Part shown: positions 5,795 to 6,040 of the stretch, one piece after another
Numbering within the stretch: position 1 is the first letter of the stretch
Layout: every line of letters begins with the position of its first letter
Assembly: GCA_934098435.1 (NCBI GenBank)
Contig: CAKOOV010000004.1
Coordinates: 26,096 to 90,095, forward strand
Origin: an uncultured Bacilli bacterium
Lineage (GTDB): Bacteria > Bacillota_I > Bacilli_A > RF39 > UBA660
Direction of reading: 5' to 3'
DNA: 64,000 nucleotides
Program-made: the position numbers and the translations under genes
The notes under the pieces: generated by a model
Database searches by the model: none
Told to the model about the DNA's origin: nothing
What the model saw: the letters and a program-made list of their open reading frames with translations, nothing else

Positions 5795-6040
5795 TTATCC
5801 CACTAATGGATTAAAGAAAAGTAATAAGAAGCAAAAGGCAAATAAGAACAATAAGAAAATTGCAAATATTATTAATATTGTCATAATTGAATGAACTACG
5901 TCATTTTTAGTTTCAGGATTTCTTCCAACAGCCTCTGCGACTCTTCCTCCAAGTAATCCTATTCCTAAACCCAATCCTAAAAAAGCAAGTCCAACCATAA
6001 CTCCTATTGCAATTGCTGTTGCAGATAAAATACTTTCCAT
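5795..6040 (-). CDS. ATP synthase c-subunit-like proteolipid lacking the helix-2 carboxylate
   Basis: 81 aa with two hydrophobic helices, glycine zipper [11 protein letters not shown] and loop GRNPET (compare RQPE). No Asp or Glu after residue 47. RBS AAAGGAGGAAG. Confidence 0.8.

Follow-up and report, generated by a model that had tools for sequence, protein, structure and literature searches.

A conserved F1-like ATPase operon of gut Bacilli with a carboxylate-less c-like subunit and a genetic link to giant surface proteins

Mechanical F1-like ATPases have so far been described only in mycoplasmas, where the membrane sector is unrelated to Fo. The mycoplasma Type 2 (G1, gliding) and Type 3 (F1-like X0, MIB-MIP) ATPases are proposed to transmit ATP-driven force across the membrane (PMC3369863, PMC11864180, PMC12994834); they are encoded by seven-gene clusters, which comprise a protein with 12 transmembrane (TM) segments, a small one in the cytoplasm and a large one with two TM helices at its C-terminus, contain no c-like and no b/delta-like subunit and were reported to be mycoplasma-specific (PMC12994834). 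Analysing a stretch of 64,000 nucleotides from an uncultured Bacilli bacterium (contig CAKOOV010000004.1 of assembly GCA_934098435.1, positions 26,096 to 90,095; hereafter the window), we found an operon that encodes, beside F1-like subunits, an 81-amino-acid (aa) homologue of subunit c lacking the ion-binding carboxylate of helix 2, and no recognisable a-subunit. The genes make up a conserved ATPase system in its own right, with a link to giant surface proteins, rather than a defective ATP synthase. With a probability of roughly 0.6, we take the 81-aa protein to be the ring-forming membrane subunit of a hydrolysis-only motor, which would derive from the F-type ATP synthase, and not part of a chemiosmotic synthase.

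With the mycoplasma ATPases of Type 2 and of Type 3, the operon shares a paralogous alpha/beta/gamma/epsilon core with an intact catalytic site, the lack of an a-subunit, novel membrane proteins, a large surface protein and the genetic tie to cell-surface machinery. It differs from them in keeping c and a fusion of b and delta, in having a membrane protein with five TM helices and N-terminally anchored partners, and in its hosts, which use the standard genetic code (the open reading frames (ORFs) of the window are long under this code) and include Actinobacteria. Membership of the Type 3 family (MSC_0618-0624) was rejected on NCBIfam cut-offs (alpha 307 vs 520 bits, beta 409 vs 570), as was that of Type 2 G1 (374 vs 600 and 359 vs 850 bits, glide_MMOB1660/1670); the beta-like subunit (448 aa) has no N-terminal extension, unlike Type 2 beta with its extra dimerisation domain there, and G1 beta is only its 58th-best PDB match. 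By analogy, the system may be described as a putative ion-blind motor comparable to the mycoplasma F1-like X0 ATPases, of whose family it is no member.

Two other described operons come close in layout. N-ATPases keep an a-subunit, AtpR and a carboxylate-bearing c-ring (PMC5376962). The present operon resembles the N-type operon (atpDCQRBEFAG) as a second, paralogous F-type operon with a long b-subunit and no separate delta, and some of its relatives (type B, see below) have the local orders c-b-alpha-gamma and beta-epsilon-membrane protein. N-ATPase membership was likewise tried and rejected: against TIGR03322/03324/03305, c scores 15.4 vs 130.85, alpha 344 vs 750.5 and beta 404.7 vs 752, and there is no atpB. 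The 'ATP synthase-like operon' of Listeria monocytogenes, lmo0085-lmo0094, consists of three hypothetical genes, c, 'delta', alpha, gamma, beta, epsilon and a further hypothetical gene; the genome also has a canonical atp operon, and an lmo0091 mutant is impaired in intracellular replication (PMC13082608, PMC3091722, PMC5736727). The gene order of lmo0088-0093, as annotated, equals that of our type-B loci, and this segment may be a relative of the carboxylate-less family, a lead that comes from comparing annotations alone. In the literature, of which our coverage was incomplete so that a prior description is possible, no carboxylate-less c-subunit and no such F1-like ATPase outside mycoplasmas was found.

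The c-like protein and its missing ion site

5795..6040, minus strand: c-like proteolipid, 81 aa (PF00137, PDB alignments, residue map, family conservation, ratio of non-synonymous to synonymous differences, pN/pS)

The ORF starts with ATG, 8 nt downstream of an AGGAGG ribosome-binding site. A first-pass annotation of the window had ascribed to its product the hallmarks of subunit c, an uncharged C-terminal part and a helix 2 without Asp or Glu at the carboxylate position, and each of these held on closer inspection. The protein matches Pfam ATP-synt_C (PF00137) with 33.1 bits (gathering cut-off 24, E = 6.9e-8), residues 10-73 covering profile positions 1-56 of 60. The helix-1 packing motif (G22-x-G24-x-G26-x-G28) and the gamma/epsilon-contacting polar loop R40-N41-P42-E43 within GRNPET are present, and the C-terminus carries NPLVG. 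Its charged or titratable residues are E2, R33, E36, R40, E43, K45, D47 and H50; nothing charged follows H50, and helix 2 is fully hydrophobic. By phmmer, 43 PDB c-subunits match, the best being Acetobacterium woodii c1 (53 bits, over both hairpins). The alignments to spinach chloroplast c and to A. woodii c2/3 and c1 run gap-free over helix 2 through the C-terminal NP(L/F)V (for chloroplast c and c2/3 from the RNPE loop onward) and place Ala60 in the column of the essential Glu; the profile alignment gives the same Ala and no acidic residue in that column. The other Na+/H+ ligand columns hold Ile27 (the Gln column of helix 1), Ile61, Phe62 and Phe65; these columns are the established Na+ ligands of the Ilyobacter tartaricus and A. 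woodii rings, with Gln, Ser/Thr, Thr and Tyr in Na+ rings.

Compared with canonical subunit c (spinach chloroplast, I. tartaricus, A. woodii c2/3), the protein thus agrees in length, hairpin, GxGxGxG motif, R-(Q/N)-P-E loop and NP(F/L)V, and departs in having Ala60 for Glu/Asp, in its hydrophobic ligand positions and in never being encoded beside an a-subunit: in sequence it is a subunit c homologue without the hallmark of the functional class, the acid in the middle of helix 2, which is D61 in E. coli and E61 in chloroplasts. That a ring built from it could not translocate ions by the known mechanism, as had been proposed at first pass, is supported, as a conclusion drawn from sequence. It is strengthened by the hydrophobic residues at the other ion-ligand positions of c, by the lack of an a-subunit in the operon and by the lack of conserved Arg, Lys, Asp or Glu in the membrane part of tm175, the five-helix protein treated below.

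Identical copies of the 81-aa protein are listed for 19,851 assembly blocks, with contigs of up to 1.41 Mb, and NCBI nr has the protein (CDE38836.1, HJJ20353.1 and others) under the name 'F0F1 ATP synthase subunit C [Bacilli bacterium]'. Human-gut metagenome-assembled genomes are the source of near-identical loci; they are labelled 'Bacilli bacterium', 'uncultured Tenericutes bacterium UMGS1185/1739' or as 'Mycoplasma sp. CAG:956'-type bins and probably belong to RF39, a gut order with reduced genomes. A word-indexed search yielded 974 homologues; in the best 120 of these (70-98% identical), for which column 60 was read, the residue is A, S, T or V and helix 2 is free of acid. No acidic residue occurs at positions 48-76 in 55 of 55 distinct family sequences. 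A scan of contigs gave at least 10 loci and a scan of metagenomes 80 more, the latter with a c identity of 51-100%. The helix-2 Asp/Glu is missing at all 80 metagenome loci, whereas both canonical controls, fetched likewise, have Glu; since metagenome loci are not independent, these counts describe consistency and not statistics.

Between the window's c gene and those of five related species, pS is 0.40-0.51 and pN 0.005-0.035 (ratio 0.01-0.07), and c is the most conserved protein of the operon, being 96-100% identical where alpha is 90-93% and tm175 67-75% identical. The loss read from a single gene at first pass is therefore fixed across a large family under strong purifying selection. A sequencing error or a pseudogene, which was considered as well, is excluded by the identical protein in 19,851 blocks, the pN/pS values and the 55 carboxylate-less sequences. 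An exhaustive HMMER search, covering 1.84 billion representatives, revealed further intact proteins without the carboxylate, a wider clade that is 34-60% identical (P0156, P0171, P0175, P0183, P0190, P0212; P-numbers denote family proteins and L-numbers fetched loci of this analysis), below which the ordinary Glu/Asp c-subunits rank. Invariant across the carboxylate-less clade are G17, G22, G39, N41 and P42.

A length polymorphism of the glycine zipper was seen at ~5950-5985 (codons G22-G28), where variants of 77, 79 and 83 aa (P0005, P0006, P0008, P0009, P0018, P0019, P0117) have only lost or gained GL/GI dipeptide units in GLGLGIG. Replication slippage or an assembly error on the short DNA repeat could explain it; if real, the variation might alter ring packing or stoichiometry.

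The operon and its surface-protein partners

The genes of the operon abut or overlap; in their minus-strand order, c stands between the first two of the following:

6057..6794, minus strand: up245, single-pass protein (N-in) with an external domain of ~200 aa, 16 nt upstream of c
5035..5793, minus strand: b-delta fusion (peripheral stalk), 252 aa, from AlphaFold2 and Foldseek
3705..5033, minus strand: alpha-like subunit, 442 aa when counted from the ATG of public gene calls (ORF reaches 5051), PF00006 at 230 bits
2372..3718, minus strand: beta-like catalytic subunit, 448 aa from ATG (ORF reaches 3727), PF00006 at 220 bits
2124..2375, minus strand: epsilon-like subunit, 83 aa, N-terminal beta-sandwich only, from a PDB profile
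1594..2121, minus strand: tm175, 175 aa with five predicted TM helices, AlphaFold2 pLDDT 77
831..1616, minus strand: gamma-like central stalk, 261 aa from ATG (ORF reaches 1625), PF00231
2..838, minus strand: d288, cytoplasmic, helix-rich, 279 of its 288 aa inside the window, from translation

Among the parts of a canonical operon, alpha, beta and gamma were thus recognised by Pfam, epsilon by PDB profile, and b and delta, in fused form, by fold. Alpha, beta and gamma all stay below the NCBIfam equivalog cut-offs though recognised by Pfam: alpha is below every one of them, beta reaches 452 bits with the atpD model (cut-off 463), and gamma, with 87.7 bits for PF00231 (cut-off 39.9), has 61.6 bits for TIGR01146, below cut-off. 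The best PDB matches of the alpha-like subunit are Bacillus-type F1 alpha chains, and the beta-like subunit matches PS3 (Bacillus F1) beta with 370 bits vs 288 bits for Mycoplasma mobile G1 beta. The F1 part looks catalytically competent, because beta keeps its P-loop, the catalytic GERSREG, Walker B and EELSEED, and alpha its P-loop (GDKKTGKT, 169-176) and Arg finger (SVSRLG, 359-364). The epsilon-like gene directly follows beta in all loci; searched with the profile of its family, the whole PDB returned four sequences, all of them ATP synthase epsilon or mitochondrial delta (E 0.03-0.3), and the homologue in L016 carries PF02823. The protein is without the C-terminal inhibitory helices.

The 252-aa protein, for which Pfam and NCBIfam gave no match, was identified as a b-delta fusion because it combines an N-terminal TM segment (1-19) and a long helix with a C-terminal domain of delta/OSCP-like fold: residues ~113-250 are modelled at pLDDT 80-94, and the top 33 PDB hits of Foldseek are nearly all delta/OSCP or the b-delta fusion of mycobacteria (E from 1e-2, with probabilities of up to 0.99). 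Like the latter (PDB 7JG5 chain d), it joins a b-like helix and a delta/OSCP domain in one polypeptide; unlike it, it is short (252 vs ~440 aa), has no second b gene beside it and shows no detectable sequence similarity. In MGnify, a member of a 90%-identical b-delta cluster bears the name 'flagellar biosynthesis chaperone FliJ', and in NCBI the protein is hypothetical; the FliJ name is probably an artefact of the coiled coil, and the fold search points to b-delta.

The gene order of the window, c-bdelta-alpha-beta-epsilon-tm175-gamma, is found at 47 loci, and a second one, type B (c-bdelta-alpha-gamma-beta-epsilon-tm175-like), at 18. Canonical c genes, fetched likewise, lie in ordinary a-c-b-delta-alpha operons. 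In the NCBI annotation c, alpha, beta and gamma are named F0F1 ATP synthase, and b-delta, epsilon, tm175 and w240 (a surface protein, see below) hypothetical. No terminator-like site was found at 1-9000; the scans for promoters and terminators were uninformative, the AT-rich DNA having fewer promoter-like sites than its shuffles.

Of the two flanking genes, up245 (TM segment 13-31) is specific to the window-like lineage, with homologues 48-95% identical, and matches no Pfam or NCBIfam family. The start of d288 overlaps the gamma stop by 8 nt; the full gene corresponds to L001 15203-16069, is conserved at 50-66% identity in the close lineage and has no family match. A database cluster at 90% identity that holds the 81-aa protein has as its representative a 246-aa homologue of up245 (P0137), which is no c-subunit; this is a clustering artefact, and it could mislead automated look-ups. 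Upstream of up245, a 371-aa protein (6915-8030, minus strand) with five predicted TM segments and an Asn/Tyr-rich external C-terminal domain occurs only in the closest strains (97% identity: L001, L003, L004, L024, L030) and has no family match.

No match to the a-subunit family PF00119 was found in the operon, and a real a-subunit used as probe against 100 fetched loci matched its own control locus only. Within 10 kb on either side, the polytopic ORFs of 23 representative loci are tm175 homologues plus three unrelated ones, an Rce1-like gene and two others, located outside the operon or encoded on the opposite strand. The protein tm175, always encoded after epsilon, is the candidate membrane stator piece replacing subunit a. 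Comparison by Pfam, NCBIfam, PDB profiles and hhalign revealed no similarity of tm175 to subunit a or AtpI, and Foldseek gave no significant fold match. In 16 diverse members no helix has a conserved charged residue; Lys112, invariant in close relatives, is Tyr, Gln or His in wider ones. The idea that tm175 is a degenerate a-subunit or AtpI was pursued and is unsupported, Pfam (16 members), two PDB profile searches and hhalign all being negative.

The putative partners of the operon on the cell surface are encoded in the window as a module at 48830-56595, 44 kb from the ATPase genes:

50998..56595, minus strand: w1865, giant N-terminally anchored protein of 1865 aa with FN3-like repeats (Pfam fn3, tblastn synteny)
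49565..50983, minus strand: w472, 472 aa, single-pass with an external domain (tblastn synteny)
48830..49552, minus strand: w240, 240 aa, single-pass (tblastn synteny)

Each of the three has one N-terminal TM segment after a basic N-terminus. In most divergent relatives, homologues of w1865 are found directly upstream of c, with that of w472 immediately upstream. Of the 37 divergent loci with enough upstream sequence, 32 have a homologue of w472 or w240 whose end lies less than 3.5 kb upstream of c, and the giant protein is present at 24 of the 25 with at least 6 kb. The arrangement varies: giant and w472 genes sit between c and b in L098/L099, a w240 homologue lies just upstream of c in L009, L062, L076 and L090 and between tm175 and gamma in L008, and the tm175-like gene of type-B loci has w240, and often a second giant protein, encoded after it. 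By hhalign or BLASTP, no homology was detected between up245 and w240 or among w472, w240 and w1865, and no family beyond fn3 (in the giant protein) was found for the partners.

Distant clusters without a-subunit and carboxylate are likewise flanked by large FN3/Ig-like or adhesin-like proteins (L015, L016/L017 and L018; G+C 74% in L015, 32% in L016/L017). The c protein of L015 (Logan SRR31343226; P0212 cluster) clusters at 90% or more with Cellulomonas soli WP_146953778.1, Pengzhenrongella and other Cellulomonadaceae; it keeps the helix-1 Gln (LGQGH) and has still no helix-2 carboxylate. In its operon, c is followed by a b-delta-like protein (336 aa), alpha, gamma, beta, an epsilon of 171 aa, a membrane protein of 197 aa and a 143-aa protein that resembles a lipoprotein, with proteins of 2446 (pAdhesive_6, Flg_new), 1984 and 751 aa encoded upstream. 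The L015 beta reaches 525 bits, above the atpD cut-off of 463, and automatic pipelines will therefore name it as a normal ATP synthase.

Some further neighbours were noted. In the window, w1865, w472 and w240 form a four-gene block (48135-56595, minus strand) with a 222-aa membrane protein (three predicted TM segments, weak DUF2238), which has no homologue in any fetched locus. A further variant, L020 (Logan SRR17247039), has a carboxylate-less c behind two small coiled-coil proteins of 130 and 142 aa, both single-pass. After c come alpha (419 aa), gamma, beta (547 aa, extended at its C-terminus) and epsilon (80 aa), and the contig has neither a long b-delta gene nor a tm175-like one. The ATPase operon is followed, in a region immediately past the window's left edge (L001 16133-19358) and downstream of gamma and d288, by a module of SipW/TasA type. 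Its small secreted proteins, two or three in number, carry signal peptides that are SipW-dependent (TIGR04088, 27.7 bits, cut-off 19) and match Peptidase_M73/camelysin weakly; the module further has a 379-aa archaeal-type signal peptidase I (TIGR02228 103 bits) with a multi-TM N-terminal extension and a DUF5305 protein. The same module occurs in L002, L005-L007, L011-L014, L047, L050, L052, L053, L062, L082 and L090; as several lineages (61-85% c identity) have homologues at 1-4 kb downstream of gamma, the adjacency may be functional.

Proposed mechanism and competing explanations

If the 81-aa protein forms the ring of a hydrolysis-only motor, alpha3beta3 would hydrolyse ATP and turn gamma-epsilon, bolted to the c-ring, for which the near-invariant c loop is the likely docking surface. 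The stator would be held by the b-delta fusion, probably together with tm175, and the c-ring would act as a lipid-embedded rotor or bearing. Because the ring is without carboxylate and the stator without arginine, rotation would be uncoupled from H+/Na+, and the enzyme could therefore not make ATP. Torque, or a cyclic conformational change, would cross the membrane to the co-encoded N-terminally anchored surface proteins, and these would be moved, reset or extruded.

Several points weigh against this mechanism. Rotation, ring formation, stoichiometry and the contact with surface proteins are all inferred from homology or gene neighbourhood, and gene neighbourhood cannot separate an actuation of surface proteins from their assembly or secretion. 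In the window's own lineage the linkage to the surface module is broken, the distance being the said 44 kb; it is up245 that lies upstream of c at 28 of the 31 loci of this close lineage (c at least 95% identical), and L082 shows no partner genes within 10 kb. Foldseek weakly matches tm175 to several a-subunits (E 1.5-5), which might make it a very degenerate one; the strictly conserved E43-K45-D47-H50-S51 at the cytoplasmic end of helix 2 is without an assigned role; and the metagenome loci are non-independent samples, many from the same species.

In one rival reading, ion transport would still be coupled, via a non-canonical site such as the D47/H50/S51 cluster and with tm175 as a novel half-channel. 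The stretch containing this cluster is almost invariant across the family, the ring is always accompanied by tm175, and subunit-a chains recur among the weak fold matches of the latter. We nevertheless consider such a coupling improbable, as D47 and H50, aligned to solved c-rings, fall where helix 2 begins next to the loop, at a distance of ~10-13 residues from the mid-membrane site, and are replaced in the wider clade by P/V and Q/S/K (P0175, P0183, P0184, P0212), while none of the helices of tm175 conserves an Arg, Lys, Asp or Glu and the protein is similar to subunit a neither in sequence nor in profile. Somewhat less remote, but still unlikely, is an engine for assembly or export of the giant surface proteins, working like FliI/FliJ with the c-ring as a static anchor or conduit. 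The gene linkage to giant proteins, secreted or anchored, speaks for it as well, and F1 is homologous to the export ATPases of type III secretion systems (beta scores 200-224 bits on FliI/SctN models); alpha and beta are, however, far closer to F1 than to FliI, the full rotor-stator set that is kept here (gamma, epsilon, c, b-delta) is missing from export ATPases, and the giant proteins have ordinary N-terminal signal anchors compatible with Sec/YidC.

The match to A. woodii c1 raises the thought of an accessory subunit, which would mix into the ring of a canonical F1Fo encoded elsewhere and tune the ion/ATP ratio. In c1 (PDB 4BEM chain J) one hairpin is also without the ion-binding Glu and has Gln in its place, and at least some hosts (Cellulomonas) must have a canonical ATP synthase as well. 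But c1 is a duplicated four-helix subunit, present in one copy beside nine carboxylate-bearing c2/3 in a working Na+ ATP synthase with a-subunit, whereas here every copy is site-less and there is no a-subunit. The carboxylate-less gene, moreover, is accompanied at about 100 loci by alpha, beta, gamma, epsilon and b-delta genes of its own and at none of them by a or a canonical c, and the canonical c operons fetched likewise are free of it, so that an accessory role appears very improbable. Least credible is a relic, that is, an ATP synthase decaying in a reduced genome, whose remaining genes are functionless. The host genome is indeed small (~1.1-1.4 Mb), and the sub-threshold NCBIfam scores of alpha, beta and gamma would fit decay, but selection is strongly purifying, the catalytic motifs are intact, all ORFs are intact at about 100 loci, in two gene orders and over c identities of 51-100%, and the system is also found in large-genome Actinobacteria; this explanation is effectively refuted already.

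Significance for gut Bacilli and for F-type machines

General caution is required with the public 'F0F1 ATP synthase' names: because of them, metabolic reconstructions may wrongly credit the hosts with chemiosmotic ATP synthesis or proton pumping, and the hosts concerned are very common gut bacteria.

On a wider scale, we put forward tentatively, and with some doubt, that the system represents an unrecognised and widespread class of rotary motors: an F-type ATPase without ion path, in which a hydrolysis-driven c-ring would mechanically drive giant FN3-repeat proteins outside the cell, in gut Bacilli, in Cellulomonas and possibly in Listeria, and which maybe has the ancestral-type architecture of the mycoplasma F1-like X0 ATPases. 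If true, the drive of the giant proteins would mean surface motility, adhesion cycling or surface remodelling. In the mycoplasma systems, it is an open question how force crosses the membrane; this question becomes experimentally approachable here, because c-ring and b-delta stalk are recognisable and relatives exist in cultivable bacteria (Cellulomonas). Few functional residues in bioenergetics are as conserved as the subunit c carboxylate; a large, strongly selected family that has neither this residue nor an a-subunit indicates that the rotor-stator architecture of F-type enzymes has been reused beyond ion coupling.

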